Shown here piece by piece: positions 50,568 to 63,272 of a stretch of 64,000 bases of DNA; position 1 is the stretch's first letter; the number at the start of each line of letters is the position of its first letter. Under the pieces are notes generated by a model. The model was not told the origin of the DNA. It worked only from the letters and a program-made list of their open reading frames with translations, and ran no database searches. Both the position numbers and the translations under genes were made by a program. Location: positions 1-64,000 of IMG/VR virus record IMGVR_UViG_3300018080_000099; one strand, 5' to 3'. This stretch comes from a virus.

Positions 50568-50644
50568 TTTAATCGGTTAAACTAGAGACCAAGCTCCCCT
50601 TTGGTTCCCCGTGAGTCTCTTTCGTGACCCAAAGATGTTTCAGT
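50568..50644 (-). ncRNA. candidate small non-coding transcript from consensus - strand promoter (50651-50680), contains GGGGAACC / TTTAACCGATTAAA element
   Basis: promoter TTGACA-18-TATATT on - strand with no downstream ORF/ATG; conserved segment shared with 51064-51170 locus. Confidence 0.25.
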
Positions 50645-50733
50645 ACTAATAATATACAACATGGCAATGGGTTTGTCAATAGGAAAGTTGAACTTTCTGG
50701 TTAACCGCTTAACTAGATTTTTAAAAATAGAGC

Positions 50734-50762
50734 TTGACAATTCAGTACCGGGAATGTATATT
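50734..50762 (+). promoter_or_regulatory. consensus promoter TTGACA-17-TATATT + conserved leader CTGTACACTCAACAAAGGAGATGG
   Basis: gcttgacaattcagtaccgggaatgtatattat. Confidence 0.6.
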
Positions 50763-50791
50763 ATCTGTACACTCAACAAAGGAGATGGAGA

Positions 50792-51073
50792 ATGGGAAGC
50801 TTCAAAGAGGAATGGACCGAGGCGATGGAATGGTGGCAGGGACTGGGCGAGATGCCTAACATGTTTTATGGTGGCATGTTTGATGTAACTGCCAAGGTAC
50901 GTGAGATTGCTTCACGGCGACTCCAGTTGAGGCTGGCGGGCACTGGAGAGGGTATTGGTACATCGGATGTCAACCATGAGGTATTCAGCATTTACCGGGA
51001 GTACAAGGCTTCTGAGGCACCAAGTGTCCTTAGCTTTCTTGTTAGCATAAATGCGGAGTTAGAGGGGATTTAG
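50792..51073 (+). CDS. hypothetical protein (93 aa)
   Basis: ORF track; RBS AAAGGAGATGGAG. Confidence 0.55.
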   Translation: MGSFKEEWTEAMEWWQGLGEMPNMFYGGMFDVTAKVREIASRRLQLRLAGTGEGIGTSDVNHEVFSIYREYKASEAPSVLSFLVSINAELEGI

Positions 51074-51086
51074 CATCCCCTTTTTT
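51064..51086. terminator. rho-independent terminator (GGGGAUUUAGCAUCCCC + U6)
   Basis: stem-loop + T-run. Confidence 0.65.
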
Positions 51087-51170
51087 AAGTGTTTATTTAA
51101 CCGCTTAAATTGGAGGCCAGGTGGGGCCTTGGCTCCCCGGGGTCCCGTTCGGTTCCCAAGATGTTTCAGT
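51087..51170 (-). ncRNA. candidate small non-coding transcript from - strand promoter (51177-51205); contains GGGAACCGAACGGGACC and ATTTAACCGCTTAAAT
   Basis: consensus - strand promoter, no ORF, ends at bidirectional terminator. Confidence 0.25.
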
Positions 51171-51261
51171 ACATATAATATACATTACTGAACAGGTTTT
51201 GTCAAGCTCTTTTTTAATTTATTTTTACTTAATCGCTTAAATAAAAAAGTGTTAATTGCTA

Positions 51262-51290
51262 TTGACTTTTAAGTGAGCGTGATGTATATT
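51262..51290 (+). promoter_or_regulatory. consensus promoter TTGACT-17-TATATT driving leaderless mRNA
   Basis: tattgacttttaagtgagcgtgatgtatatt; ATG 7 nt after -10. Confidence 0.55.
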
Positions 51291-51296
51291 ATTGTC

Positions 51297-51458
51297 ATGG
51301 AAAAGAAAAGGTTTGAATTCGTAGACAGAACCGAAGCCAAGAGCGGCGAGGAAGCCAAGGCCAAGTATCCGTGGGCGACTACATGGGGCAAGGCTGTTGG
51401 TGGCTGGATGGTGTTCGAGAGCCAAGCCGACTTGGAGGAATGGAGGAGGAGCGGATGA
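51297..51458 (+). CDS. small protein (53 aa), probable leaderless start
   Basis: ATG 51297 lies ~7 nt downstream of -10; ORF track 51273 start is inside the promoter. Confidence 0.45.
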   Translation: MEKKRFEFVDRTEAKSGEEAKAKYPWATTWGKAVGGWMVFESQADLEEWRRSG

Positions 51459-51823
51459 GGTACAAGGATATGAAGGAGCGGTTCGGAGCCCATGCTCTGG
51501 CGGATGTAGACGTGAATCCGATGCGTGTTGTGGAGCATCAGCATTTCTCGAGTCCGTCAAGCCATGACTACCGGGGCGACGCCATTGATGAGTGTGTCCG
51601 GGAGAAGCTGGATTTTGCGTCCACCTGTAACGTGGTGTTTGAGATGGCGAAGCGGTATGTCAAGGTGAGCTGTCCGAAGTGCCGTCGCAACATGGAGAAC
51701 CGCGGCGGAGGCGGCAGTGGTACTGCAATCACCATTGATTACCACTGCAAGCATTGTGACATAGCCTTTGAGCTGTCGATGCAGTCGGATGGTATGTTCG
51801 TGTCGTTCCCTGAGAATGAATAA
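51455..51823 (+). CDS. zinc-finger protein (CPKC…CKHC)
   Basis: ATGA overlap, RBS GGAGGAG inside ORF 51371..51823. Confidence 0.5.
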   Translation: MRYKDMKERFGAHALADVDVNPMRVVEHQHFSSPSSHDYRGDAIDECVREKLDFASTCNVVFEMAKRYVKVSCPKCRRNMENRGGGGSGTAITIDYHCKHCDIAFELSMQSDGMFVSFPENE

Positions 51824-51901
51824 TGGGATGGAGCCGTTAAAACAACGGCTCTTTCCTTTAGTCTGAGCTTAACCGCTTAAATAAAAAAGCGCAAAAAGAC
51901 C

Positions 51902-51930
51902 TTGACATTTCAGTGCGGGTGATGTATATT
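51902..51930 (+). promoter_or_regulatory. consensus promoter + conserved leader
   Basis: ccttgacatttcagtgcgggtgatgtatattattggggtacttaacaaaaggagatgg; TTAACCGCTTAAAT 25 bp upstream. Confidence 0.6.
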
Positions 51931-51960
51931 ATTGGGGTACTTAACAAAAGGAGATGGTAC

Positions 51961-52395
51961 ATGAACATCACCCTCAAGAGTCTGAAGGTGTGCGAGTGGA
52001 ATTCAGAAGAAACCACTTGTTTCACAGCCACGATGTATGTGGACGGACAGAGAGTGTGCAAGGTTTCGAACGAAGGGCATGGTGGACCGAACATGTACAT
52101 GCCCGTGTACAATGAGTCTTTGTTGAAGAAGGCTCAGGATTTTGTTGGTGCGATTCCTTGCAAGGGATATTCTTTCAACCATGATTTGGATACGTGGTTG
52201 GGAGATGTCATGGAGAAGATGGAAGAGGAGAAGCAACTCAAGAGGTGGTGTCGCACCAAGATTGTTGCGAGAACCAAAGATGGCAAGAAGGGTTCTTATC
52301 TGGTGTGGAAGGGACAGTTCACACCGCAGGCGAAGGAAATCCTGCTCAAGAAGAATCCTGACATAGTGGAATTTGTCAACGAGAGATTCCTCTAA
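51961..52395 (+). CDS. hypothetical protein (144 aa)
   Basis: ATG after RBS AAAGGAGATGG inside ORF 51913..52395. Confidence 0.55.
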   Translation: MNITLKSLKVCEWNSEETTCFTATMYVDGQRVCKVSNEGHGGPNMYMPVYNESLLKKAQDFVGAIPCKGYSFNHDLDTWLGDVMEKMEEEKQLKRWCRTKIVARTKDGKKGSYLVWKGQFTPQAKEILLKKNPDIVEFVNERFL

Positions 52396-52513
52396 GACAT
52401 TATCCCTCGGCGGTTATAGTCGAGTTCATGGGTGCTGGGGAGTGCCCTTCGAACTATGGCTGCTCCGCCGGGGGATTCTTTTACGCTCTGTTTAAAATAC
52501 AGCTGGAATATTT

Positions 52514-52545
52514 GGGGCAAAGAGAAAGGGAGCCCGGAGGCTCCC
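52514..52545 (-). terminator. terminator for - strand 3-gene operon (GGGAGCCUCCGGGCUCCC + U-rich)
   Basis: stem-loop with U-rich tail on - strand. Confidence 0.55.
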
Positions 52546-52562
52546 ACCCTGCTCAAGGGTAA

Positions 52563-52814
52563 TTAGTCTAGTGGTTCGAGGTTGATGTCGTTTTGTCCCA
52601 TGACACCGTGAGCCAATTTGAATTCGAAGCTCAGGGCATGGAGATATTCGAGGATGCCGTCTTGCATGGCGGTAAGGCAGTCGACGGCATTTTGACAGCC
52701 GGGCTTACGCTCTTCTGTCTGTGCCAGTTCGTGGTACTTTTTGAACGCCTCAGCAGACTCGATGATGATAGTCGCTTTGTTGTTCAGTGTGTGTTGGATT
52801 TCGTCCTGCTTCAT
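52563..52814 (-). CDS. hypothetical protein (83 aa)
   Basis: internal ATG with RBS AAGGAGG inside ORF 52563..52850. Confidence 0.5.
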   Translation of the reverse strand: MKQDEIQHTLNNKATIIIESAEAFKKYHELAQTEERKPGCQNAVDCLTAMQDGILEYLHALSFEFKLAHGVMGQNDINLEPLD

Positions 52815-52831
52815 GAAGCCTCCTTGACAAC

Positions 52832-53035
52832 TTAGAACCAGCTGTCGCACACAAGGCAGTGGGATTGATTGTCAACCCTGAATGCCTTAATGTTGAATCG
52901 TACGTTGTCCCAGAAGCCCGGCTCGTCCTTTTTGTGGCAGTCCACAAGTTCGTGGGCTCCGCAGTGAGGACAAATCAGACAGCCGCAGGGCGTATCTGAT
53001 TCAACGACAACGATTTTGACTTGAGGTTCCGGCAT
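52832..53035 (-). CDS. zinc-ribbon protein (CGCLICPHCG…C…CLVC)
   Basis: ORF track. Confidence 0.5.
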   Translation of the reverse strand: MPEPQVKIVVVESDTPCGCLICPHCGAHELVDCHKKDEPGFWDNVRFNIKAFRVDNQSHCLVCDSWF

Positions 53036-53107
53036 GTCATCTCCTTGTGATATGGTAAAAGTTCCCCTGTAATATACAACAGGGGAACTTAAATGTCAAG
53101 CGATTTC

Positions 53108-53503
53108 TTACAGATTGTTCAGGGCATTCGTTACAGCTGGCACAACCGTCTTCCAGAATTCGTCGGCAACAATCAGGGCGCAGTGGTAATCGGGAGCCAA
53201 GTCCTCTTCTGTCAAGAGGTCGGGAACCATCCGTGATTCGATACCGCATTCGATGATTCGTTTCATGATTGCCTTTGCTGATTCCACGGCAACTTCGCAT
53301 TCGGCATCGAACGGAACATTCAGGGTTCCGCCACGGTTGATGTCATCATGCCACATCTGCTTGTTGGTTTCGTAATGCTGATTGACAAAATCGGAAAAGG
53401 ACAACTGCTCTTCCATCTCGTCGTTCCATGCATTGTGGGCTTCGTGGAGGTTGTTCATACCGAACTCGTCCATCCAGTCCACCATGTTTGGGAAGTCTGA
53501 CAT
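53108..53503 (-). CDS. hypothetical acidic protein (131 aa)
   Basis: RBS AACAAGGAGATGG downstream of - strand consensus promoter. Confidence 0.55.
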   Translation of the reverse strand: MSDFPNMVDWMDEFGMNNLHEAHNAWNDEMEEQLSFSDFVNQHYETNKQMWHDDINRGGTLNVPFDAECEVAVESAKAIMKRIIECGIESRMVPDLLTEEDLAPDYHCALIVADEFWKTVVPAVTNALNNL

Positions 53504-53530
53504 ACCATCTCCTTGTTAAGGTACACACAT

Positions 53531-53559
53531 AATATACATCATGTGCGCTGAAAAGTCAA
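53531..53559 (-). promoter_or_regulatory. consensus promoter on - strand (TTGACT-17-TATATT)
   Basis: revcomp ccttgacttttcagcgcacatgatgtatattatgtgtgtaccttaacaaggagatgg. Confidence 0.55.
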
Positions 53560-53716
53560 GGATTATTTTACGATTGTAGAAACCGTTTGTCTTTGTTGAA
53601 CTTCAGATGGTTGGCTTCGGCTTCTGTCAGCCCGATGAATTCATTTGAGCTGAAAGAGATTTCGTCTGGGTAATACGAGAACAGCAAACACATCCCCCAA
53701 AAAAACTAAAATATCG

Positions 53717-53745
53717 CTTGACAAATCAGTCTCCTTGTTGTATAT
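53717..53745 (+). promoter_or_regulatory. consensus promoter
   Basis: cgcttgacaaatcagtctccttgttgtatatt. Confidence 0.55.
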
Positions 53746-53773
53746 TACTGTCAAAAGAAAGGAGACATGAAAA

Positions 53774-53968
53774 ATGTCAGCCATTATTTCGTTTGCAACA
53801 ACTTCCATTCTGGGTGTGATACTCGCCATTGTGGTTGGTATCATAGCTCTATTGGTGTTGTTCGGACTCGCCAAGTTCGCATGGGCTTTGATGTCCGACT
53901 TCGCCGGATTGATTGTTGCTTTTATCATCGTTGGCATAATTCTTGCTGTGACGGTATTCATTATATGA
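53774..53968 (+). CDS. small membrane protein (64 aa, 2-3 TM)
   Basis: ORF track; RBS AAAGGAGAC. Confidence 0.45.
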   Translation: MSAIISFATTSILGVILAIVVGIIALLVLFGLAKFAWALMSDFAGLIVAFIIVGIILAVTVFII

Positions 53969-54363
53969 GTGGCGACACATTCAAGATTGATGGCAACGTA
54001 GTTGTCTGTACATCCGCGTCGGGCAGTGTATATCAGCTGACTGAGAACTCCTGCACATGCAAGGGGTTCTCATTCCGGCGCAACTGTAGGCACCTGAAAC
54101 AAGCCACAGAGTCCGGTATCTTCAAACGATTGAAGAAAGGGTTCTCTGCTTTGCACTCACCTTATAAGGGTAGCTTCAGACGTTCCCCTTATATTATGAA
54201 GGAGAGAATCAAGGCTGTTCGTGCATACCTTGAGAAGAACGGGTTTAATAACCCATCTGGCAATATGTTACACGAAGTCGAGAAGATTGTAACACCTGAG
54301 ACTCAGCCCGGCACGGTTCTTGCTTTAGCAAAAAAAATCGAGAAAAGTGAAAAAAAGGGTTGA
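53965..54363 (+). CDS. SWIM zinc-finger protein (CTCKGFSFRRNCRH)
   Basis: ATGA overlap; CxCxnCxH motif; ORF 53767..54363 N-terminal part is out-of-frame readthrough of membrane gene. Confidence 0.45.
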   Translation: MSGDTFKIDGNVVVCTSASGSVYQLTENSCTCKGFSFRRNCRHLKQATESGIFKRLKKGFSALHSPYKGSFRRSPYIMKERIKAVRAYLEKNGFNNPSGNMLHEVEKIVTPETQPGTVLALAKKIEKSEKKG

Positions 54364-54388
54364 CAACGAGACTGAAATGAAGTATATT
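54360..54388 (+). promoter_or_regulatory. consensus promoter
   Basis: gttgacaacgagactgaaatgaagtatatt. Confidence 0.5.
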
Positions 54389-54450
54389 ATTACCATGAGA
54401 TTAAGAAACACCGATACAAACCCTTTTCACCTAACAGAAAGGAGCCACTC

Positions 54451-54624
54451 ATGAAGGCTCACAAAGTTGGCGCAATCAAGTACCGTTCACGTTCAGCCGC
54501 CGCGGTGGCGCTGGCAAAGCGGACGAACCTCAGCAACACCGAGATTGCCAAGAAGGTTGGCATGACTCCTCAGACGGTGTGTGCGGCTCTTCGCCGGGAG
54601 ATGCTCAAGGGTTACAACGACTAA
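54451..54624 (+). CDS. small HTH protein, family D (K.H..RSRS.AA…TEIAKKVGMTPQTV)
   Basis: RBS AAAGGAGCC; paralog of 54814, 57892 N-termini. Confidence 0.45.
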   Translation: MKAHKVGAIKYRSRSAAAVALAKRTNLSNTEIAKKVGMTPQTVCAALRREMLKGYND

Positions 54625-54745
54625 TCCATCTCCTCTCCTGAAAAGATGGGTGTCCGGAAACGGGCACCTGTCTTTTTATTTCCCCCGTAATGTCTTGTCA
54701 GATAAGAGTCTATCCTGTCCGACATGAAAAAATAGCATTTAGGGG

Positions 54746-54774
54746 TTGACAAACTACTTTTTTTGATGTATACT
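54746..54774 (+). promoter_or_regulatory. sigma70-type promoter TTGACA-17-TATACT
   Basis: ggttgacaaactactttttttgatgtatact. Confidence 0.5.
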
Positions 54775-54813
54775 ATAAGGGTAGTTTGTTTAACTTTTCG
54801 AAAGGAGCCTCTT

Positions 54814-54981: not shown

Positions 54982-54988
54982 GAGGTAA

Positions 54989-55016
54989 GGGCCGGCTTGG
55001 TGCCCGGCCCTTTTTT
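54989..55016. terminator. terminator (GGGCCGGCUUGGUGCCCGGCCC + U6)
   Basis: stem-loop + T-run. Confidence 0.65.
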
Positions 55017-55077
55017 ACGCCCACCAGTTTAACCGCTTAAATAAAAGACCGAGCTGTCCGTTCACTGGCCTAACCAC
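55017..55077 (-). ncRNA. candidate small non-coding transcript from - strand promoter (55084-55112); contains GTGAACGGACAGCTCGGTC + TTTAAGCGGTTAAA
   Basis: consensus promoter without ORF; conserved element family. Confidence 0.25.
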
Positions 55078-55130
55078 ACTTATAATATACTAAAAAGGAG
55101 CTGACTTGTCAACCCCTTTTTAGCATTTTT

Positions 55131-55367: not shown

Positions 55368-55394
55368 GCTCCTCCTTTAAGGTTTGTTGATACC

Positions 55395-55423
55395 AATATA
55401 ACTCATTCGAGAGGACTTGTCAA
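55395..55423 (-). promoter_or_regulatory. consensus promoter on - strand, back-to-back with + promoter 55448-55476
   Basis: revcomp gcttgacaagtcctctcgaatgagttatatt. Confidence 0.55.
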
Positions 55424-55447
55424 GCACAAATTATTTTTATTTTCCTA

Positions 55448-55499: not shown

Positions 55500-56174
55500 A
55501 TGAACAAGTCCCAACAAGTCAGAGAATGGTTTGATACCGGCGTCATCGACATGAGCCCTGATAAGAAGTTGTGGGCTGCTACCAAGCTCGGCATGACGAT
55601 ACAGACGGTTCACGCAGCTCTGGTGAGACACACCAAGACGAACAACCCCACACAGCCAACAGTCCCCTCCCACACCGACTATGACATTAAGAATGTCATC
55701 AAAGGTAAGGTTGAGGATTGCCTTCAGATGGCAAGACAGGCAGGCTACCGTACCCCTTCAATTATAGATGTCAGATGGGACTTGAGGGGCAAAACCGCAG
55801 GGCAAGCATGTCACAGATTCACGGGTTCATACATCAGAGTCAACATGGTTCTAGCTCGGGAGAATCGGGAACACTACATTGCACAGACGGTTCCCCACGA
55901 GGTAGCACACATCATCGACCACTACCACAACGGTAGAAGCAGTGGACATGGACGCCCTTGGAAGCGAATCATGGAGCTTGCCTTCAGACGGCCGGCTGAC
56001 AGATGCCACTCTTACGACACCACCAACGCACGGGTTCGGACGTTGAGAAGATACCAATATGTATGTGACTGTGCCACCCCACACAACATCACGAGCATCA
56101 AACACAGAAGAATCCAGCTCGAAGGTGCCCGGTATATATGTAAGAGGTGCAGGGGAGTCCTGAGACTCCCCTGA
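55500..56174 (+). CDS. HTH + SprT-like zinc metallopeptidase domain protein
   Basis: N-terminal KLGMTIQTVHAAL (HTH, family D-like); HEVAHIIDH HExxH; C-terminal Cys pairs (YVCDC…CKRC) as in SprT family. Confidence 0.55.
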   Translation: MNKSQQVREWFDTGVIDMSPDKKLWAATKLGMTIQTVHAALVRHTKTNNPTQPTVPSHTDYDIKNVIKGKVEDCLQMARQAGYRTPSIIDVRWDLRGKTAGQACHRFTGSYIRVNMVLARENREHYIAQTVPHEVAHIIDHYHNGRSSGHGRPWKRIMELAFRRPADRCHSYDTTNARVRTLRRYQYVCDCATPHNITSIKHRRIQLEGARYICKRCRGVLRLP

Positions 56175-56192
56175 AAAAAGATAAAAAAGAGC

Positions 56193-56221
56193 TTGACAAC
56201 TCAGCGACAATGATGTATATT
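56193..56221 (+). promoter_or_regulatory. consensus promoter
   Basis: gcttgacaactcagcgacaatgatgtatatt. Confidence 0.55.
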
Positions 56222-56246
56222 ATTTGACATGAAAGGAGAAGAACCA

Positions 56247-56531
56247 ATGTCAAACGCCCTCACCACCCAACTCAGGCAGAGCGGAGCCGCCGTTGCGGTT
56301 CACCCTGACACCGACCGTTACAAGAATCGGTTCGATGTTCGCTCAGGAAGTTCCAACCGTGTCTACCGTATCAGCTACGACGCTGCCCCCGGTGCCGGTT
56401 ACTGGGTATGTTCATGCCCCGGCTGTATCAGGCATGGCGACTGCAAGCACCTTCGGGCTGTCGGACTGCAGGGACGGAAGTACGGACGAGTGTCACTCGA
56501 AGCCTCCATCAAGAGAGCACTCAATGGCTAA
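56247..56531 (+). CDS. SWIM zinc-finger protein (CSCPGCIRHGDCKH)
   Basis: RBS GAAAGGAGAAG; CxCxnCxH. Confidence 0.5.
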   Translation: MSNALTTQLRQSGAAVAVHPDTDRYKNRFDVRSGSSNRVYRISYDAAPGAGYWVCSCPGCIRHGDCKHLRAVGLQGRKYGRVSLEASIKRALNG

Positions 56532-56838
56532 GAAGCGCCAGTCGGTATTCGACCCCGACTATGCTCCCTACGGGACCTACAAAGGTCCCAAGGGGAGCCC
56601 TGACGAATGGAAGCAAGCCTTCCGTGAGATGTTTGGTTCGGTGGAGGAAGCTCAGGAAGCTCTGGGTAAGGACCACCCGCTTAACATCCTCGGATTGAAT
56701 CTTGGAGCTACGATAGAGCAAATCAAGGCGGCGTTCCGCAAGATGGCTCTGAAGTTCCATCCTGACAAAAACAAAGACCCGGAAGCTCCTTCGATGTTCC
56801 GGAAAATCTGTGCGGCATACAAAGTGCTCATGGGCTGA
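56527..56838 (+). CDS. J-domain (DnaJ-like) protein
   Basis: HPD tripeptide in KMALKFHPDKNKDPEA…KICAAYKVL; helix II/III pattern of J domain. Confidence 0.65.
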   Translation, partial: AKKRQSVFDPDYAPYGTYKGPKGSPDEWKQAFREMFGSVEEAQEALGKDHPLNILGLNLGATIEQIKAAFRKMALKFHPDKNKDPEAPSMFRKICAAYKVLMG

Positions 56839-56847
56839 AAAAAGTCC

Positions 56848-56876
56848 TTGACAAATCAGGTCGCGTGTTGTATATT
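56848..56876 (+). promoter_or_regulatory. consensus promoter
   Basis: ccttgacaaatcaggtcgcgtgttgtatatt. Confidence 0.55.
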
Positions 56877-56922
56877 AAGGGTGTTGAAGGAGGCACCCTT
56901 AACCACTCAAAGGAGTAGAGAG

Positions 56923-57285
56923 ATGCCACTCACGTACACGAAGGTCAACCGGCGGGAGGAAGTCAGCCGGGAGGAAGTCGAGCTGAAGCCATACGACCAC
57001 TGGGGAATGTTCACCAGTGCTGGCAACCGGAGACTCCGGACGCTGGCTCAGCAGCTGCTTGACAAGATGGAAAAGGAGACTGACCACCTTGCCCGCCAGC
57101 AGCTCATCGTCTGGTACCTGAAGAAGATTAACAAGGTATCCAGCTTCGAGACGTACAGCGAAGCCAGCGACACGGCAGTCCGCGAATACATCTGGGACTT
57201 CATAGTCAAGGTGTGTGGCTGTGTGGACATCAGTACCGGCACGGCTGACGACCTGTGGGAAAAGTACTACAGGCCGGAGTACTAG
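56923..57285 (+). CDS. hypothetical protein (120 aa)
   Basis: RBS CAAAGGAG; inside ORF 56848..57285. Confidence 0.5.
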   Translation: MPLTYTKVNRREEVSREEVELKPYDHWGMFTSAGNRRLRTLAQQLLDKMEKETDHLARQQLIVWYLKKINKVSSFETYSEASDTAVREYIWDFIVKVCGCVDISTGTADDLWEKYYRPEY

Positions 57286-57344
57286 GAAGTGACAGAAGTC
57301 AGGTAAGTCCGACTGAGCTAGAAAGAGAAAGTCGGACTTCCCTC

Positions 57345-57373
57345 TTGACATCCAACCTCAAAGGAGTTATATT
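57345..57373 (+). promoter_or_regulatory. consensus promoter (leaderless mRNA; AAGGAG lies in spacer)
   Basis: cttgacatccaacctcaaaggagttatatt; ATG 7 nt downstream. Confidence 0.5.
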
Positions 57374-57379
57374 TTAGAC

Positions 57380-57892
57380 ATGGAACAAAAGTACATCTCA
57401 CTTGCGAATGATATGTTGACGTTTGCCAAGACATTGTTAGAACGTGATGGCGGACTTCAGCCTGTCGTGTTCATTCTCAAGGAGGGCTTTGCACCAGCTG
57501 TCGAGCAACTTGAGATTGTTGATGAAGCTCAGAAGGAGCAGATGTTTGTAGCTCTCGGATGTGCAGCGGCAAAATCCGACATCGACGCTTTACTCTTTAT
57601 CAATGAGGGGTGGCTCCGCCGGGTGGATGCCAGCCAGCTCGACAAGGATGACTTTCAATATGAGAGTCCATCCATGTACCCGGAGTCAATGAGGGAAGAA
57701 TGTATCGTAGCTACCTTGATTGACTTTAAGGAATCAAAGGGCTATTCCTCATTCACTATCTTTACAAGGGAGAATGGGTTTAAGTTCAAGGATTCGGACG
57801 GGTTTGATGAAGCCAAAGGAATGACAACGGAAGTTACGTTGAATGCATATAACCAAGCATCCGCTTTACTATCTCAACAGAAGGAGGACTAA
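57380..57892 (+). CDS. hypothetical protein (170 aa)
   Basis: ORF track. Confidence 0.5.
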   Translation: MEQKYISLANDMLTFAKTLLERDGGLQPVVFILKEGFAPAVEQLEIVDEAQKEQMFVALGCAAAKSDIDALLFINEGWLRRVDASQLDKDDFQYESPSMYPESMREECIVATLIDFKESKGYSSFTIFTRENGFKFKDSDGFDEAKGMTTEVTLNAYNQASALLSQQKED

Positions 57893-58398
57893 TGTCCAAG
57901 CAGTCGTTCACCCATGAAGGAACTGAGTATGGCTCACGTTCCGAAGCCGCACGGGCTCTGCTTTCGCAGACCAACCCGGAGACCAAAAAGCCGTACACCT
58001 GTTCGGAAGTCGCCAAGATTGTCGGGATGACTCCGCAGACCGTGTACACCCAGACGGACGAGGGCAAAGCGAAAGTCGCTGCTCGTCGTGCCAAGTACCG
58101 CGCCATCAACCTCGCCAAGACCGGCAAGTACACGCAGGCAATGATTTGCGACCGTACGAAGCTCGAAGCCGGTGTCATGCGGAAGCTCCTGACAGAAGCC
58201 AACATCACCTGTCCGACCGCCAAGGAACTCGCTCAGTCTCAGAAGGAAGCGGAAGAGGCGAAGGCGAAGGAAGCCGAAGCAAAGAAGGCTGAAAAGGCGA
58301 AGGCAAAGGAAGAAGTAGCTCCCGCCGCGGCAGAAAAGAACACCAGCAAGGGCAAGGGGAACTCCCGGAAGGCAAAGTCCAAAGCTGACAAAAAGTAA
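57892..58398 (+). CDS. HTH protein, family D N-terminus + histone H1-like KAKEAEAKK tail
   Basis: YGSRSEAARALL…SEVAKIVGMTPQTVY; C-terminal Lys/Ala/Glu repeats. Confidence 0.5.
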   Translation: MSKQSFTHEGTEYGSRSEAARALLSQTNPETKKPYTCSEVAKIVGMTPQTVYTQTDEGKAKVAARRAKYRAINLAKTGKYTQAMICDRTKLEAGVMRKLLTEANITCPTAKELAQSQKEAEEAKAKEAEAKKAEKAKAKEEVAPAAAEKNTSKGKGNSRKAKSKADKK

Positions 58399-58433
58399 GC
58401 CAACTCCCTGACTGAGTGGCAGGGTGGAAGGGA

Positions 58434-58471
58434 CCGCCGCAACCTCTGATTCAAGTTGCGGCGGTTTTTTT
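58434..58471 (+). terminator. rho-independent terminator (CCGCCGCAAC…GUUGCGGCGG + U7)
   Basis: stem-loop + T-run. Confidence 0.7.
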
Positions 58472-58480
58472 ATTTTTCCC

Positions 58481-58509
58481 TTGACATTCCAGCTGGAATG
58501 AATTATATT
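58481..58509 (+). promoter_or_regulatory. consensus promoter upstream of ORF-less conserved element
   Basis: cccttgacattccagctggaatgaattatatt. Confidence 0.5.
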
Positions 58510-58515
58510 TTAAAT

Positions 58516-58566
58516 AACCTCAGGGGTGGGAACGGCGACCGAGCACTCCAGTTTAAGCGCTTAACC
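58516..58566 (+). ncRNA. candidate small non-coding transcript: AAUAACCUCAGGGGUGGGAACGGCGACCGAGCACUCCAGUUUAAGCGCUUAAC
   Basis: promoter with no ATG/ORF; same conserved element as - strand loci at 60057-60151, 63212-63272, 61665-61724. Confidence 0.3.
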
Positions 58567-58584
58567 AAATACCTGAAAAAGAGC

Positions 58585-58613
58585 TTGACATCTCAGCTCG
58601 AATGAATTATATT
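58585..58613 (+). promoter_or_regulatory. consensus promoter + conserved leader
   Basis: gcttgacatctcagctcgaatgaattatattatctgtacattcaaaggagatg. Confidence 0.6.
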
Positions 58614-58637
58614 ATCTGTACATTCAAAGGAGATGAC

Positions 58638-59045
58638 ATGGCAATCACAAAGGATTTTCTCGGAGCAGGCAAGGCAATCTTCACGGTTGCGAATCCTCAC
58701 GGGAAACACTATACCTTCAAGATTCGTAAGAAGAAGGATATGCCCTACTTCGTTTCCCTGCTCACTGGTCCCGACAACTATGCTAACTATACCTACCTTG
58801 GTATATACATCCCTGCACATGCCGAAGTGCGGCTGAGCACCAAGAGCCGGTACAATGCAGAGTCCCTGCCTGTCAAGGTGGTTCGATGGGCTATTAAGAT
58901 GATACACGAGGGCAAAGAGTTGCCTGAGGGATATAGCATCCGGCACGAGGGCAAATGTGCTCGGTGTGGGCGGCGACTCACTGACCCGGTATCAATCGAA
59001 CGTGGTTTCGGTCCTGAGTGCTGGAGACGTTCTGTCAATAGCTAG
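58638..59045 (+). CDS. hypothetical protein with C-terminal CxRCGRRLTDPVSIERGFGPEC zinc motif
   Basis: RBS CAAAGGAGATG; inside ORF 58602..59045. Confidence 0.5.
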   Translation: MAITKDFLGAGKAIFTVANPHGKHYTFKIRKKKDMPYFVSLLTGPDNYANYTYLGIYIPAHAEVRLSTKSRYNAESLPVKVVRWAIKMIHEGKELPEGYSIRHEGKCARCGRRLTDPVSIERGFGPECWRRSVNS

Positions 59046-59064
59046 AAAAAAGTGAAAATAACTA

Positions 59065-59093
59065 TTGACAAACCAGCTGGAATGGTGTATATT
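59065..59093 (+). promoter_or_regulatory. consensus promoter
   Basis: tattgacaaaccagctggaatggtgtatatt. Confidence 0.55.
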
Positions 59094-59146
59094 ATTACCA
59101 TGATTGAAAGATGTTCAACCTTACCACTCAAAGAAAGGGGCCTCGT

Positions 59147-60013
59147 ATGATGGCTTCAAAGCTGAAAGTCTCGAATGCCAAGAGCATCGAGGAAGTTCTT
59201 GAGTCCACCGGGATGAACTGGGATGCGGAGTCGCACCCTCTCGTTACCGGCGGCGGACTGGATGTGCCGAACTTCAAGGCGATGGTGCGGAGTGACAATT
59301 CACATGTCCTCGGCGTTGTCGGTTCGAAGTATCAGCCTGTCCAGAATTCACTCGCCTTCGGTTTCATGGACACCCTTGTTCAGAAGCACGATGCCGAATA
59401 CGAGAATGTCTACAGCCTGAAGGGCGGCGCGTATGTGATTGTTCAGGCTCGCATCCATCACGACTTCGAAGCCCGGCGCGGTGACAGGATTGCTTCCTAC
59501 ATCACCATGCTGAATTCCTTCGATGGCACTACCTCTTTCAAGGTGTACTTCACCCCTATCCGCCTGTTCTGCACCAATCAGCTCGGTGCCTCATGGCGGA
59601 AGAAGGCACAGTCCATCACGGTTCGCCACTCGGTGAATGCGAAAGAGAATGCCGAAGAGGGTTTCCGGGTTCTCTGCTCGGCTCAGGAATACTTCGAACA
59701 GTTTCAGGAGAAGGCACGCGTGCTTGCTCAGAAGGCAGTCGACCAGAAGATGGTTGACAAATTCCTGAAGGAAGTTCTCGGTGAAGCCGAATCAACCCAG
59801 AAGAAGAACCAGCATGAGAAGGTGACGGAACTGTTCCAGCACGGCAAGGGCAACAAGGGCGAAACGATGTGGGACTTGTACAATGGCGTGACGGAGTATG
59901 TCGACCACCACGGCACGAAGGACGACGACAAGCGCCTTGCCTCGGCTCTCATGGGACACGGGCTCAACCTGAAGGACAAGGCTTGGAATGCGGCTCTTGC
60001 CCTGACAAACTAG
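59147..60013 (+). CDS. DUF932-like (TIGR03299 phage/plasmid-like) protein
   Basis: VSNAKSIEEVLESTGMNWD…AMVRSDNSHVLGVVGSKYQPVQN…MLNSFDGTTSFKVYFTPIRLFCTNQL resembles DUF932 conserved core; RBS AAAGAAAGGGG. Confidence 0.45.
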   Translation: MMASKLKVSNAKSIEEVLESTGMNWDAESHPLVTGGGLDVPNFKAMVRSDNSHVLGVVGSKYQPVQNSLAFGFMDTLVQKHDAEYENVYSLKGGAYVIVQARIHHDFEARRGDRIASYITMLNSFDGTTSFKVYFTPIRLFCTNQLGASWRKKAQSITVRHSVNAKENAEEGFRVLCSAQEYFEQFQEKARVLAQKAVDQKMVDKFLKEVLGEAESTQKKNQHEKVTELFQHGKGNKGETMWDLYNGVTEYVDHHGTKDDDKRLASALMGHGLNLKDKAWNAALALTN

Positions 60014-60056
60014 AACTCCTGACAAAGGGGAGGGGCAACCCTCCCCTCCACTTAAC

Positions 60057-60090
60057 AAAAGAGAACCGGGAATTCCCAGTTCTCTTTTTT
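60057..60090. terminator. bidirectional terminator (GAGAACCGGGAAUUCCCAGUUCUC flanked by A4/U6)
   Basis: stem-loop with T-run on both strands; second hairpin GGGGAGGGGCAACCCUCCCCUCC at 60027-60049. Confidence 0.65.
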
Positions 60091-60151
60091 GTCAGCCCCA
60101 GTTTAACCGCTTAAATTTTCGTGCTACCTCGCCGTTCCCACCCCTAAGGTT
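60091..60151 (-). ncRNA. candidate small non-coding transcript from - strand promoter (60158-60186): AAUAACCUUAGGGGUGGGAACGGCGAGGUAGCACGAAAAUUUAAGCGGUUAAACUGGGG then terminator
   Basis: consensus promoter, no ORF, ends at bidirectional terminator. Confidence 0.3.
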
Positions 60152-60211
60152 ATTTAAAATATAATACATGGCGAAGCAAAAGTCAATAGGAAAAATAAAT
60201 AAAATTAGCTA

Positions 60212-60240
60212 TTGACAATGGAGCTGAAATGTATTATATT
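60212..60240 (+). promoter_or_regulatory. consensus promoter (leaderless), divergent from - promoter 60158-60186
   Basis: ctattgacaatggagctgaaatgtattatatt. Confidence 0.55.
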
Positions 60241-60246
60241 ATTACC

Positions 60247-60459
60247 ATGATGATAAAATCAAAATACACAGGCAAAATGATAAAGGGTTCAGTCTCATTC
60301 TGGTATGGCTCACGGCTCATTGGAGAGGCAGTCGTATACGATGGTGAGGGAGTCCCTGAGGCATTCGAGAGAGAACGTAGGTACTGCGAGTATTTCAACA
60401 GGGAGGCACTGCCTTACCTGTTCCGGTACACCAATGCAATCAAACACGGATGGGAATAA
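60247..60459 (+). CDS. small protein (70 aa), probable leaderless start
   Basis: ATG 7 nt after -10; ORF track start 60229 lies in promoter. Confidence 0.45.
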   Translation: MMIKSKYTGKMIKGSVSFWYGSRLIGEAVVYDGEGVPEAFERERRYCEYFNREALPYLFRYTNAIKHGWE

Positions 60460-60570
60460 TGGCACGTAAAGGCAACGGAAACAAACCAGCTACAAAGGAA
60501 TGGGCTAAGCATCTTCGCAAGGCAGGCAAGCGGGATGCCAACAAGCGGCAGAGAAAAGCCAACAAAAGCC

Positions 60571-60599
60571 TTGACAATTAGTCCTGAATGTTGTATATT
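60571..60599 (+). promoter_or_regulatory. consensus promoter
   Basis: ccttgacaattagtcctgaatgttgtatatt. Confidence 0.55.
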
Positions 60600-60621
60600 A
60601 CCTGTAACAACAGGAGATGAT

Positions 60622-60798
60622 ATGAACCAGAACATAACTCAAGCCAAAGCCCAGCGGCTCCAAGACATCGCCAGTGCGAAGGCTTCGCACGAGCGGCAGG
60701 CACGCAGGGAGCAGCGGCGTATCAACCACGAGGATGTCAAGTTCCTTCAGGCGGCATTGGAGGCACCGGACGTCGAAACCTTTCTGAGGATAGTATGA
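60622..60798 (+). CDS. small protein (58 aa)
   Basis: RBS CAGGAGATG; inside ORF 60535..60798. Confidence 0.4.
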   Translation: MNQNITQAKAQRLQDIASAKASHERQARREQRRINHEDVKFLQAALEAPDVETFLRIV

Positions 60799-61067
60799 AC
60801 ATCAAATCAATCGAGTACCGCACTGTCGAAGTTCCCGAAGTGACGAAAGTCAAGTTCAGGAAGTTCCCGGAAGGCGACGTCATCGCCCTGTTCCCTGAGG
60901 AGGAAGCAGACCTGCGAGGCAACTGCATGTCCTACATGTGCATAGGACAGCACGGAGCAGCCAGCCCTGAGTTGATTGAGGAATTGACTCCTGCAACTCC
61001 AGCAGAATACAAGGCAATCAAAGAGGAACTGGAGCGCATCGGTTATCACCTTAGCGTGGAGCAATAA
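60795..61067 (+). CDS. hypothetical protein (90 aa)
   Basis: ATGA overlap. Confidence 0.5.
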   Translation: MNIKSIEYRTVEVPEVTKVKFRKFPEGDVIALFPEEEADLRGNCMSYMCIGQHGAASPELIEELTPATPAEYKAIKEELERIGYHLSVEQ

Positions 61068-61318
61068 TGACTTACGGAAAGATACTTGAAATCGAGGACT
61101 ACCTCGAACTGGACTGCAGGCTGTTCGTTAACGGTATCAGCGGGAAGCCAGCTCACAGCGACTCCTACATGACTGTACTGGAATACTCCCGGCTAGGTGA
61201 AGTCGACAAGTCAAGGTTCAGCCAGCAGGAGTGGCTGGAAGCCTGCGAGCACTGGCTATCCAATGTCAACTGCGGGCCGGCCCTGAAACTCTTTGCCAAG
61301 TGGTTCAAAAGAAAATAA
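61067..61318 (+). CDS. hypothetical protein (83 aa)
   Basis: TAATG overlap. Confidence 0.5.
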   Translation: MTYGKILEIEDYLELDCRLFVNGISGKPAHSDSYMTVLEYSRLGEVDKSRFSQQEWLEACEHWLSNVNCGPALKLFAKWFKRK

Positions 61319-61326
61319 AATAAGCC

Positions 61327-61355
61327 TTGACAACTCAGCCAGAATAAGGTATATT
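61327..61355 (+). promoter_or_regulatory. consensus promoter (leaderless)
   Basis: ccttgacaactcagccagaataaggtatatt. Confidence 0.55.
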
Positions 61356-61361
61356 ATTGGT

Positions 61362-61496
61362 ATGAAACAAGTAACCTTCAAAGAAATCAACGGGAGAAAG
61401 GTTCCCAAGTTCCGGGGCGGCAGGGTAACGGTTCGCTTCCGGGATAAGACAAAGTACTCCCGTAAACTCAAACACAAAGGAGTGCAGGATGGATAA
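61362..61496 (+). CDS. small basic protein (44 aa), leaderless
   Basis: ATG 7 nt after -10; in frame with ORF 61293..61496. Confidence 0.35.
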   Translation: MKQVTFKEINGRKVPKFRGGRVTVRFRDKTKYSRKLKHKGVQDG

Positions 61497-61650
61497 CCTG
61501 TTTGACGTTGACATGACAGAACTGAAGGACAACTCCCTTGCCGAAATCTTTCAATCAGACGGCGAGGACGGCAGCTGGGACGAGGACGGACGCTGGGATG
61601 ATGATGACTGGCTGGAACAGCAGGCGGCACTTTCCGCTGGGGACTATTAG
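61489..61650 (+). CDS. small acidic protein (53 aa; DGEDGSWDEDGRWDDDDW)
   Basis: ATG overlapping upstream stop; below cut-off. Confidence 0.35.
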   Translation: MDNLFDVDMTELKDNSLAEIFQSDGEDGSWDEDGRWDDDDWLEQQAALSAGDY

Positions 61651-61664
61651 TCCCCAGTTTTTTT
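61639..61664. terminator. terminator (GGGGACUAUUAGUCCCC + U7)
   Basis: stem-loop + T-run. Confidence 0.65.
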
Positions 61665-61724
61665 ACCCCTCAGTTTAAGCGCTTAAATAAATGACCGAGC
61701 TTGCCGTTCCCACCTCCCTCGGTT
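61665..61724 (-). ncRNA. candidate small non-coding transcript from - strand promoter (61731-61759): …UAACCGAGGGAGGUGGGAACGGCAAGCUCGGUCAUUUAUUUAAGCGCUUAAACUG
   Basis: consensus promoter, no ORF, conserved element. Confidence 0.3.
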
Positions 61725-61783
61725 AATTTAAATATACTTCATTTCAGCTCAAATGTCAATAGTTATTTTCATTTATTTTTCGC

Positions 61784-61812
61784 TTGACTTTTGAGCTGAA
61801 ATGTATTATATT
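61784..61812 (+). promoter_or_regulatory. consensus promoter + conserved leader
   Basis: cgcttgacttttgagctgaaatgtattatatttaagtacattcaacaaaaggagat. Confidence 0.55.
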
Positions 61813-61839
61813 TAAGTACATTCAACAAAAGGAGATAAC

Positions 61840-62091
61840 ATGGCGACTAAAAAATACAAGTGGTATGCTGCTGTTCGTTTTAAGCTGAGCAACCGTATAG
61901 GTTCACCCACTGCTATTTTTGTATGGGATAAGTTTAAAAACAAATGGATACACACATGTATGGCTACTCCTAAACCTCTTGCCTATACAACTGCTCGTCG
62001 TAAATGTATTGAAAGGAAGAAACTTGATAAACAGGTAAAAGGCTGGATTGTTATTCGCGAGGATGAATATGCAAGAAACGGGTTTAATTAA
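61840..62091 (+). CDS. hypothetical protein (83 aa)
   Basis: ORF track. Confidence 0.5.
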   Translation: MATKKYKWYAAVRFKLSNRIGSPTAIFVWDKFKNKWIHTCMATPKPLAYTTARRKCIERKKLDKQVKGWIVIREDEYARNGFN

Positions 62092-62099
62092 AAAAGCCC

Positions 62100-62128
62100 T
62101 TGACTTTTCAGTTCAAATGATGTATATT
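62100..62128 (+). promoter_or_regulatory. consensus promoter
   Basis: cccttgacttttcagttcaaatgatgtatatt. Confidence 0.55.
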
Positions 62129-62152
62129 ATTGGTATCAGAAAAGGAGGCAAG

Positions 62153-62737
62153 ATGGAATACAAAGGCTACACCATTGACATTGAGCAGGACTACTCTGCT
62201 GAGGACCCCCGCGACTGGGACAATCTCGGTACAATGATATGCTTCCACAAGCGCTATCAGTTGGGCGACAAGGGGCATGGAGTTGATACTAGCGATTATT
62301 CAGGCTGGGCTGAGATGGAAGCAGAACTTCGCAAAGAATATGCCGTTGTCCTTCCCCTGTACCTTTACGACCACAGCGGCATAACCATGAAGGTAACTCC
62401 CTTCTTTTGCCCTTGGGATTCCGGGCAAGTCGGCTATATCGTGGTAAGTCGCGAGACTATCCTGAAAGAGTATGGCGGCAGTCGCTTGACAAGTCAGAAA
62501 CTTGAGAAGGCGAAGTCGGTGCTCATTGGGGAAGTCGAGACTTACGACATGTACCTCTGCGGCGAAGTCTACAGTTACATGGTACCGGGACTGGCAGAGG
62601 AGGATGATAACTACGACTACATGTGCAGTGGCTACTACGGGCATGAGGAAGCAGTCAAGGCGGCAAAGGAAGTTATCGACTCATACATAGCCGCAAAGGA
62701 AAAGAACTGCGGCGTACAGCAGGAATTGGCTGTATGA
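62153..62737 (+). CDS. hypothetical protein (194 aa)
   Basis: RBS AAAAGGAGGCAAG; inside ORF 62048..62737. Confidence 0.55.
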   Translation: MEYKGYTIDIEQDYSAEDPRDWDNLGTMICFHKRYQLGDKGHGVDTSDYSGWAEMEAELRKEYAVVLPLYLYDHSGITMKVTPFFCPWDSGQVGYIVVSRETILKEYGGSRLTSQKLEKAKSVLIGEVETYDMYLCGEVYSYMVPGLAEEDDNYDYMCSGYYGHEEAVKAAKEVIDSYIAAKEKNCGVQQELAV

Positions 62738-62877
62738 AATTCTATTTCAAGTCCGAAGCCAGCCTTATTGGCGTAGCCCAGTTTGTTGAAGCGGATAGCA
62801 AGTCGGAAGCCGCTGAACACTTGGCTGACGTATACGGAATCACAAAGCAGGAAGCCACCGAACTATTGGAGGATTGA
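62734..62877 (+). CDS. small protein (47 aa)
   Basis: ATGA overlap; below cut-off. Confidence 0.35.
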   Translation: MKFYFKSEASLIGVAQFVEADSKSEAAEHLADVYGITKQEATELLED

Positions 62878-62943
62878 CAAATGATTGACGCTATCGGAAC
62901 TCTAACGGCTTTTGCACTCCTGTACTTTATTTTCAAATAAGCC

Positions 62944-62972
62944 TTGACAAGTCAGCTCCAATGATGTATATT
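62944..62972 (+). promoter_or_regulatory. consensus promoter + conserved leader
   Basis: gccttgacaagtcagctccaatgatgtatattattggcgtacttaacaaaggagccgagatgg. Confidence 0.6.
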
Positions 62973-62999
62973 ATTGGCGTACTTAACAAAGGAGCCGAG

Positions 63000-63182
63000 A
63001 TGGACCAAGAGATTCGCCAGCAGTTCCAGACCCTTGCCTGCCGACTTTCCCCTGAGAACCTTCACTGCGACGGGGAGATAAGCCACGCACAGGCGATGAA
63101 AAAGTACCGTGCCATCATGCGCGAATGGCGCCAGCTGGAAAAGAAGGTCGGACGCAAGGTTGACGAGTCCGAAGTCTGGTAA
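63000..63182 (+). CDS. small protein (60 aa)
   Basis: inside ORF 62961..63182; RBS AAAGGAGCC. Confidence 0.5.
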   Translation: MDQEIRQQFQTLACRLSPENLHCDGEISHAQAMKKYRAIMREWRQLEKKVGRKVDESEVW

Positions 63183-63188
63183 GTTCAA

Positions 63189-63211
63189 GGGGAGGCAACT
63201 CCCCTTTTTTT
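63189..63211. terminator. terminator (GGGGAGGCAACUCCCC + U7)
   Basis: stem-loop + T-run. Confidence 0.7.
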
Positions 63212-63272
63212 AAGCCCCCCAGTTTAACCGCTTAAATTTCTTTGCTACCTGTCCGTTCCCACCCGTGAGGTT
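63212..63272 (-). ncRNA. candidate small non-coding transcript from - strand promoter (63279-63307): AAUAACCUCACGGGUGGGAACGGACAGGUAGCAAAGAAAUUUAAGCGGUUAAACUGGGGGG
   Basis: consensus promoter, no ORF, conserved element. Confidence 0.3.

Follow-up and report, generated by a model that had tools for sequence, protein, structure and literature searches.

Plasmid RK2 encodes two regulators, KorA and KorB, which act locally and at a distance on palindromes set off from a battery of promoters (PMC11790492), and a different kind of repeated early-region element is found in T4-type phages, in which PeSL cassettes, consisting of a terminator and an early promoter, stand between the small variable early genes of hyperplastic regions (PMC2839356, PMC4122927). 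The element considered here, a short palindrome with the core TTAA-N-CG-N-TTAA, lies in a stretch of 64,000 nucleotides of viral DNA (positions 1 to 64,000 of IMG/VR record IMGVR_UViG_3300018080_000099, hereafter the window) and recalls both of these systems: as on the IncP plasmid, there are a dozen near-perfect short palindromes on a mobile element with a strong promoter battery and, as in the phage cassettes, a terminator stem-loop adjoins an early promoter and the pair is repeated between small variable open reading frames (ORFs). We propose, with a probability that we put at about 0.4, that the palindrome is a DNA operator for a phage family of helix-turn-helix (HTH) proteins and that it punctuates the early operons. 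The feature as a whole is conserved among the large uncultivated phages of one clade.

The core is present in the window in exactly 10 perfect copies, all of them between 50.5 and 63.3 kb, where 0.2 would be expected, and there is not a single copy with one mismatch. A first-pass annotation, made from the sequence alone, had described an operator-like palindrome repeated 11 times; the repetition and the operator-like form stand, but the count is 10 in the window with two more just past its end (at 11190 and 11362 of locus L001, or about 64577 and 64749 in window numbering; loci examined beside the window are designated by L and a number). The positions that it listed are right to within 1 base, and its remark that the motif is missing from the first 50 kb is borne out by a scan of the whole window. 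Written as a 14-mer, TTTAA(G/C)CGCTTAAA, the motif has five exact copies, and nine with at most two mismatches against 0.20 expected from dinucleotide shuffles (0/100 shuffles reach nine), all of which are at 50568-63236 in one orientation (plus strand), with none in 1-50 kb. As a 14-mer, the tenth site (50701) is degenerate, yet its 12-base-pair (bp) core, TTAACCGCTTAA, is perfect, and the copies in the window and the two outside it are all perfect at the 10 fixed positions.

This strictness extends well beyond the window. A metagenome scan with the pattern promoter-N38..68-TTAASCGNTTAA gave 67 loci, where about two would be expected by chance; about 40 are clear members of the family. In 223 kb of related loci there are 127 perfect cores against 0.5 expected, a number that is partly due to the search pattern (at least 50 copies are independent of it), and 11 one-mismatch copies against 13.9 expected, that is, conservation of the core is all-or-none. 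The consensus of 126 distinct sites, TTTAAGC followed by GCTTAAA, is a dyad in which the arms and the central CG are invariant; 82% of sites have T at -1 and as many have A at +1, G takes position 5 in 83%, and position 8 is free. Neither variation nor covariation is seen in the arms, the sole free positions being those that flank the central CG, and as an RNA hairpin the motif would be worth -0.94 kcal/mol, with no compensatory change detected by RNAalifold. Spacings from one motif to the next peak at 24-26, 70 and 105-108 bp. The motif is unchanged in lineages that range from 33% to 47% in G+C content, which probably infect different hosts. Scans of genome contigs for the host returned one family member and five chance matches. 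Among the chance matches of the metagenome scan, those in L016, L071 and L072 are TTAACCGGTTAA sites directly upstream of LacI-family genes. A literature search for the motif and the units described below returned nothing relevant, there is no Rfam match at gathering score in the window and nothing above chance level at E up to 5 in 50.3-64 kb, and ARAGORN found nothing. A role of the motif as intrinsic terminator was considered and rejected, the stem being all A-U and not followed by a T-run.

The palindromes share their region with a dense battery of promoters. From 50.4 to about 66 kb (into L001), about 30 near-identical TTGACA-N17-TATATT(AT) promoters are found on both strands, and the promoter scan gives 51 promoter-like sites against 17.5 expected, of which 26 match at 11/12 positions. 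The extended consensus of these promoters is TTGACAAnTCAGCnnnAATGatGTATATTAT, and there is often one per small gene; several form divergent pairs whose -35 boxes are 25 bp apart, and the other 50 kb of the window have only seven such promoters. Four of the 10 palindromes (50701, 51228, 51868 and 58552) lie upstream of a plus-strand promoter, starting 33-34 bp before its -35 box, and the promoters concerned, which the first-pass annotation had placed at 50734, 51262, 51902 and 58585, are real, with matches at 10-11/12 positions. The spacing is kept on both sides where promoters diverge, since copy 50701 is 33 bp from each of its two promoters and copy 51228 is 33 and 35 bp from its own, and these two copies sit in DNA that is transcribed by neither flanking promoter. 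In the related loci, too, a spacing of 32-34 bp between the motif and the -35 box that follows it is the most frequent (22/42 cases), and a promoter-flanking motif is centred about 62 bp upstream of the early transcription start. The orientation of its asymmetric centre relative to the flanked promoter varies from case to case.

A second and more frequent setting is the end of a short non-coding unit. Seven of the 10 copies end short promoter-driven units without a plausible ORF (one of the seven is also promoter-upstream), and six of these seven units are on the minus strand, pointing against the genes. Their promoters (at 50679, 51205, 55112, 60186, 61759 and 63307 on the minus strand and at 58481 on the plus strand) have the motif 42-69 nucleotides (nt) downstream. 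The backward short units are back to back with the promoter of the next operon and abut the terminator of the preceding plus-strand operon, so placed that the motif sits exactly between the unit and its neighbour's terminator; in three backward units, the distance from the motif to the -35 box of the next operon is exactly 110 nt. Hairpins downstream of the units have, on average, 4.4-4.7 A among the 8 nt that precede the stem and 2.0-2.7 T after it, with at least four T in only 7/35 of them, and mostly they are the terminators of the convergent operon. Given such A-rich sequence before and T-poor sequence after the hairpins, most backward units have no canonical terminator of their own. That the units might encode mini-ORFs was rejected, as they have no Shine-Dalgarno sequence or in-register start codon, as their 5' indels are not multiples of three and as the motif has stops in two frames.

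These units fall into two classes. In the short class, an invariant GAACGG stands exactly 16 nt before the TTTAA of the palindrome in 36/36 distinct sequences, with zero indels in between, and in 52/52 GAACGG-plus-motif units there is a promoter (at least 11/12 positions) 67-94 nt upstream. The short class has no conserved secondary structure: the motif hairpin is the sole structure found by RNAalifold, a scan of column pairs shows no stacked covariation, and the fold relative to shuffles has a mean z of -0.78 for the sense and -0.80 for the antisense strand. With 38% G and 24% C, the RNA strand of short bodies is rich in G, unlike that of long bodies. The long class, which comprises 12 members by covariance model (a third one after the two in the window lies at 11297 of L001), looks like a genuine structured RNA because of its compensatory changes, its covariation and its strand-specific G-U pairs. 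In helix 1, 5/5 pairs have changed on both sides; pairing extends to 90.9% of cells (74.8% in shuffles), and covariation scores 0.551, where shuffles score 0.252 (0/500 reach the observed value) and slid controls at most 0.22, statistics that come from only 12 sequences in an alignment fitted to the model. Many pairs of helix 2 are G-U, which are A-C mismatches on the opposite strand.

The 12-mer ACUGAAACAUCU of the long class (50633-50644 and 51159-51170, minus strand) is identical to positions 191-202 of Escherichia coli 23S rRNA, which we take to be the universally conserved helix-11 loop, and a search of the window for sequences with which this 5' 12-mer could pair returned only the units themselves. 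Some short bodies (L022, L061 and L077) match 23S positions 247-264 (GGCGAGCGAACGGGGAGG) at 14/14 to 17/18, and one of them (L022m383) aligns locally to 23S rRNA with a score of 31 where the shuffle maximum is 26. Across the 36 short units, flank identity to 23S rRNA is only about 39%, and the matches may be due to chance or composition. Mimicry of 23S rRNA as a property of the family was rejected, most whole-unit alignments scoring no better than shuffles, and it is kept as a low-probability lead. The short bodies of L018 and L050 start with GUACUGAAGAUGUUUAG, which contains AGAUGUUU, the exact complement of AAACAUCU of the long class, and to judge from this complementarity short and long units could pair with each other.

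The arrangement recurs in the related contigs. A homologue of the window's DUF932 protein, at 63% identity, is encoded on a contig that has the module twice (gene, terminator, motif, backward promoter, forward promoter), and L076 and L061 have three to seven units in 11-13 kb. In L076, L061, L038 and L066 the units are at operon borders, mostly facing the flanking genes and back to back with the next promoter, and over all loci, by crude gene calls, 36 units are followed by a gene in the same direction and 30 by a convergent gene. L060 (1155-1500) has three tandem short units with periods of 105 and 108 bp; every unit has a consensus promoter of its own, with the motif 33 bp before it, and no terminators stand between the units. 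Motifs are clustered in groups of two to five with spacings of 24-25 and about 70 bp in L061 (at 10718-10823 and 3505-3806), L024, L058, L063, L077 and L085, and inside these clusters is a third conserved module, about 58 nt long, AAAUCCAUCGUAA...GGAUUACUAGGGCC...UUACCCUGUCUUC, which has no promoter of its own and is represented by few and very similar sequences. One of these contigs (L085, CAYGYP010000023.1, 12.6 kb), although binned in a 'Candidatus Bathyarchaeia' metagenome-assembled genome, is almost certainly a mis-binned phage contig; it has 14 bacterial consensus promoters, three motifs and the HTH and SprT-like genes of this phage clade.

A candidate for the binder is at hand in the same region. 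The HTH-like segment that the first-pass annotation had seen in four proteins is real: the ORFs at 54451, 54814 and 57892 are paralogues with a common invariant S-R-S...A...V-G-x-T-P-Q-T-V, and the SprT-like protein at 55500 has a similar N-terminal segment. The Pfam HTH matches of the paralogues are all below curated cut-offs, their PHROG matches are weak and to families annotated as DNA-binding, and the sole ParB-type signal is a weak HTH_ParB match (E 0.053). An AlphaFold model of the 57-residue protein (predicted local distance difference test score, pLDDT, 87.9) has a beta-hairpin followed by a three-helix HTH; every one of its PDB neighbours is an HTH DNA-binding domain (among them Lrp, MarR, DeoR on its operator and sigma region 4), at E of about 0.2-1, which is weak and expected at 57 residues. 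A search for sequence relatives with solved structures gave none that is significant, the TAL-effector matches being repeat-like noise. Longer paralogues (57892-58398, and in L077, L068, L085 and L018) carry a Lys/Ala/Pro-rich, histone-H1-like C-terminal tail, whose composition suggests that sequence-specific nucleation might be combined with non-specific coating of DNA.

With a family hidden Markov model (HMM) built from the three window paralogues, this family is the commonest protein family in the motif-bearing loci (25 ORFs in at least 16 loci), the SprT-like family coming next, and it has no member in 219 kb of control loci, including low-GC DUF932 relatives without the motif. The QTV of the recognition helix is conserved throughout the clade. 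The family is rare, with 177 clusters at E of at most 0.001 among 1.8 billion representatives, some of them repeat-protein noise. A search that started from HTH homologues led to three short contigs, one of which (L086, 1.8 kb, 33% GC) has a perfect TTAATCGCTTAA that follows a terminator, precedes a promoter by 42 bp and adjoins a SprT-like gene. The motif follows within 150 nt of the stop codon in 7/23 HTH genes against 8.9% of background ORFs, although several of these seven cases are orthologous, which reduces the effective sample. Among the early-region ORFs scanned, no further DNA-binding domain was recognised, no ParB domain was found in the 30 window ORFs scanned against Pfam, and no LacI-family protein was seen in the early region.

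How these observations fit together can be outlined as follows. Arms that do not covary, a negligible folding energy and symmetric copies in untranscribed spacers point to recognition as double-stranded DNA, and the palindrome T-TTAA-(G)-CG-(N)-TTAA-A would thus be a duplex site for a dimeric sequence-specific protein, most likely a member of the small HTH family with the invariant ...QTV helix, of which the early region encodes three to four copies. The site would punctuate an early region transcribed by the host RNA polymerase, in which each early operon is followed by a terminator, then by the site and then by a backward non-coding unit whose promoter is back to back with the next one; elsewhere the site lies about 62 bp upstream of early starts. 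The bound protein might then act as a global early regulator and as an insulator, which (i) would halt the backward units before antisense transcription runs into the preceding operon and (ii) would modulate the promoters that the site flanks. A roadblock is proposed because most backward units have no U-tract terminator of their own. We infer all three steps, i.e. the binding of the site by a protein, the identity of the binder and the roadblock or regulatory outcome, from sequence. The first-pass annotation had suggested a dimeric HTH regulator of the early promoters, and in favour of it are the true dyad, the fixed promoter spacing and the clade-wide co-occurrence with HTH genes; it fits less well in that only 4/10 copies are promoter-upstream and that seven are in short units that it had missed, and the HTH family is a candidate binder. 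The fixed GAACGG spacing and the covarying hairpins in the units leave room, beside such a regulator, for a role at the level of RNA.

Several observations weigh against a DNA operator. In the units the motif is almost certainly transcribed, as the fixed 16-nt distance from GAACGG in all short units and its position in the long class, 3-6 nt after the covarying hairpin 2, both indicate. Its centre is asymmetric relative to the direction of transcription (in units, position 5 is G in 77/115, or 67%, and position 8 is C in 40/115, or 35%), which a symmetric dimer does not predict. The all-or-none strictness exceeds that of most operators, the long-class RNA would be cut inside its structure if a roadblock stood about 50-75 nt from the start, and the co-occurrence of HTH genes and motif may reflect only the common descent of one clade.

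The main alternative, although we regard it as doubtful, is that the motif acts in RNA. Here the palindrome would be a protein-bound hairpin (five A-U pairs, loop GCGN) near the 3' end of phage small RNAs, either nut-like, with the GAACGG box, a 16-nt spacer and a hairpin that loads a factor onto RNA polymerase, or a processing or punctuation signal between RNA modules. A near-consensus promoter on every GAACGG unit, an indel-free spacing from GAACGG to the motif, a structured long class, a centre that is asymmetric with respect to transcription and motifs that separate different conserved bodies in one direction of transcription (L061, 3500-3900 and 10700-10900) all speak for it, and it is the asymmetric centre and the fixed spacing to transcribed elements that keep an RNA-level role in play. 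However, the stem never covaries and its hairpin energy is negligible, perfect copies are present in untranscribed spacers and 33 bp upstream of -35 boxes with the centre in either orientation, the short class has no conserved structure and its two strands fold alike, and antitermination from backward units would yield antisense of the early genes. A related proposal, which we judge unlikely, makes the palindrome a protein-binding or processing site on the transcript, a handle common to a multi-copy and previously undescribed family of early small RNAs of the phage; these would have three or more types of body and would be transcribed backwards from the borders of operons. If it were correct, the units could provide a switchable antisense shut-off of early genes, or decoy RNAs that copy conserved segments of 23S rRNA domain I.

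A host regulator, in place of a phage protein, might bind the site and tie early transcription to host physiology; it could be of the LacI/CcpA type or of the Rex type, which binds TTAA-N4-TTAA. The layout AA-N-CG-N-TT of the core is that of a cre box, and it fits the cre pattern, TGWAANCGNTNWCA, at 12/14 positions; chance matches of the scan stood upstream of LacI-family genes. The clostridial Rex box, TTGTTAANNNNTTAACAA, has the TTAA-N4-TTAA frame in common with the motif (PMC9600882). Set against this, the outer TG/CA of cre and TTG/CAA of Rex are absent, 82% of the sites being flanked by T and A, Rex sites are not marked by an invariant central CG, and the motif is unchanged across lineages of 33-47% GC with probably different hosts, all of which makes such a regulator improbable. 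We consider it equally improbable that there is no dedicated binder at all, the motif being the most conserved part of a mobile, recombination-homogenised PeSL-like cassette and a crossover point for small early genes. Terminators and early promoters at the borders of groups of small variable ORFs, with flanking genes that vary across relatives, are what such a cassette would look like, but homogenisation would conserve the whole cassette and not a 10-position core while the bodies diverge strongly; moreover, there are 127 perfect cores and no decayed copies, and the core survives at 33% GC and stands alone at 50701, 51228 and 51868. Finally, the backward units could be replication-priming transcripts, R-loop origins like T4 oriF or ColE1, with the palindrome as unwinding or initiator element, to which their G-rich short bodies, strong promoters and A/T-rich flanks would be suited. 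We give this very little credence, with at least 12 copies crowded into 16 kb where the other 50 kb have none, a long class that is not G-rich, no link to an initiator or primase seen, and the phasing to -35 boxes left unexplained.

Coordinates of the features discussed are as follows.

Features of the early region of the window (P, promoter, with its strand and position; terminators were found by scan in three cases and read from the sequence in the others).
Feature	Position	Strand	Details
Palindrome, TTTAATCGGTTAAA	50568-50581	.	Distal end of long unit 1
Palindrome, core TTAACCGCTTAA	50701-50712	.	Untranscribed spacer between P(-)50679 and P(+)50734
Palindrome	51096-51109	.	Distal end of long unit 2, adjoins terminator of convergent plus-strand gene
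Palindrome	51228-51241	.	Between divergent P(-)51205 (35 bp) and P(+)51262 (33 bp)
Palindrome	51868-51881	.	After plus-strand terminator 51830-51852, 33 bp before -35 of P(+)51902
Palindrome	55028-55041	.	End of short unit from P(-)55112
Palindrome	58552-58565	.	Ends plus-strand short unit (P58481), 33 bp before -35 of P(+)58585
Palindrome	60102-60115	.	End of short unit from P(-)60186
Palindrome, perfect, TTTAAGCGCTTAAA	61674-61687	.	End of short unit from P(-)61759
Palindrome	63223-63236	.	End of short unit from P(-)63307
Long unit 1	50563-50679	-	Consensus promoter, 5' ACUGAAACAUCU, two hairpins, motif; covariance-model match 50563-50650, 80.6 bits
Long unit 2	51091-51205	-	Covariance-model match 51091-51176, 83.4 bits
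Short unit	55028-55112	-	GAACGG 55058-55063 (minus strand), 16 nt, motif
Short unit	58481-58565	+	GAACGG 58530-58535, tandem with P(+)58585
Short unit	60102-60186	-	GAACGG 60132-60137, back to back with P(+)60212
Short unit	61674-61759	-	GAACGG 61704-61709, back to back with P(+)61784
Short unit	63223-63307	-	GAACGG 63253-63258, back to back with P(+)63333
Early promoter	50734-50762	+	Motif about 62 bp upstream of start
Early promoters	51262-51290, 51902-51930, 58585-58613	+	Arranged as at 50734
Operon promoter	60212-60240	+	Back to back with backward unit, -35 box 110 nt from motif
Operon promoters	61784-61812, 63333-63361	+	Arranged as at 60212
Terminator hairpin and T-run	54989-55016	+	Of plus-strand operon, directly before motif
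Similar terminators	51064-51086, 51830-51852, 60060-60091, 61636-61658, 63187-63206	+	
HTH protein, 57 aa (amino acids)	54451-54624	+	Candidate binder
HTH paralogue, 55 aa	54814-54981	+	Motif 51 nt past stop codon
HTH paralogue, 168 aa	57892-58398	+	Lys/Ala-rich C-terminal tail; directly upstream of unit 58481
SprT-like metalloprotease	55500-56174	+	N-terminal HTH-like segment (KLGMTIQTV)

As for the genome that carries these features, the proteins of the window recur on a metagenomic contig of about 264 kb, and the gene content points to a very large phage, with nicotinamide adenine dinucleotide (NAD)-dependent ligase, a major-vault-protein-like protein, NAPRTase, AAA ATPases, DUF932, SprT-like protein, DUF6011, an Ea47-like protein and a DnaJ domain among the products. 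Searches of phage and plasmid collections and of IMG/VR revealed no close relative; megablast with 50-64 kb against phages and pattern scans of viral contigs gave no match, and tblastn with DUF932 gave phage and plasmid matches that are all at or below about 32% identity. In 40000-50400 the GC skew and the direction of ORFs flip, marking a leftward gene block at whose head the two long-class units and a minus-strand promoter at 50440 stand, and 50.4-51.3 kb is the divergence point between leftward and rightward early transcription. Genes of an anti-defence or plasmid leading-region type are found in the early region at 55500-60013, namely those for the SprT/ArdC-like metalloprotease with its N-terminal HTH-like segment, DUF932, DUF6011, Ea47-like and DnaJ-domain proteins and a SWIM-like zinc-finger ORF. 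Elsewhere, a 998-residue protein (10224-13220) has a major-vault-protein shoulder, repeat domains and SPFH/Band-7 (PF11978, E 3.9e-24), and vault-type domains are unusual for a phage-like genome. There is also a theme of NAD salvage and synthesis, with NAPRTase at 15511-16683, the NAD-dependent ligase at 2046-3995 and, past the window, a nicotinamide mononucleotide (NMN) transporter at 14773-15333 of L001; the low-GC relative L006 has NAD synthase, nucleotidyltransferase and NUDIX genes.

Should the palindrome prove to be an operator of this kind, it would reveal a compact and stereotyped control of the host-takeover region in a clade from anoxic sediments, leachates and lakes, built from three parts: (i) one invariant operator, (ii) one small HTH family and (iii) backward units at every operon border. 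It would also make it possible to test whether a protein can define insulation between strong promoters that are densely packed, and the consensus promoters, together with an orthogonal operator-HTH pair, could serve as parts for synthetic biology. The DNA signature, a promoter followed by GAACGG-N16-TTTAAGCGNTTAAA, retrieves the early regions of the clade from metagenomes, and the units add two or three RNA or leader families without an Rfam entry.

Comparison with described systems brings out both what is shared and what is particular to this locus. With LacI/GalR sites such as the cre of CcpA, the palindrome shares a 14-bp dyad, an invariant central CG and unconstrained bases beside it, but it has no outer TG/CA and its candidate binder has a different, much smaller fold. 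The linear box, fixed spacer and small hairpin (two in the long class) after early promoters resemble lambda nut and HK022 put, except that the hairpin here is all A-U and negligible, GAACGG is unlike boxA, most units face genes and copies are also present in untranscribed DNA. PeSL cassettes, for which a role in recombination is proposed, have no invariant palindrome, no backward promoter and no conserved transcribed body, and their hosts and promoter types differ. The RK2 operator OB is TTTAGCSGCTAAA. KorB is a ParB-family CTP-dependent clamp of about 360 residues, whereas the candidates here are HTH proteins of 55-170 residues without a ParB domain, and domain scans reveal no apparent homology to KorA or KorB; RK2 is, furthermore, a plasmid, and in this phage most sites are at the ends of short non-coding units. 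The feature is thus a variant of the global operators of phages and plasmids and of early-region cassettes, extended by apparently undescribed non-coding units, and among known systems its arrangement is, in its logic, most like the KorA/KorB operator network of RK2.

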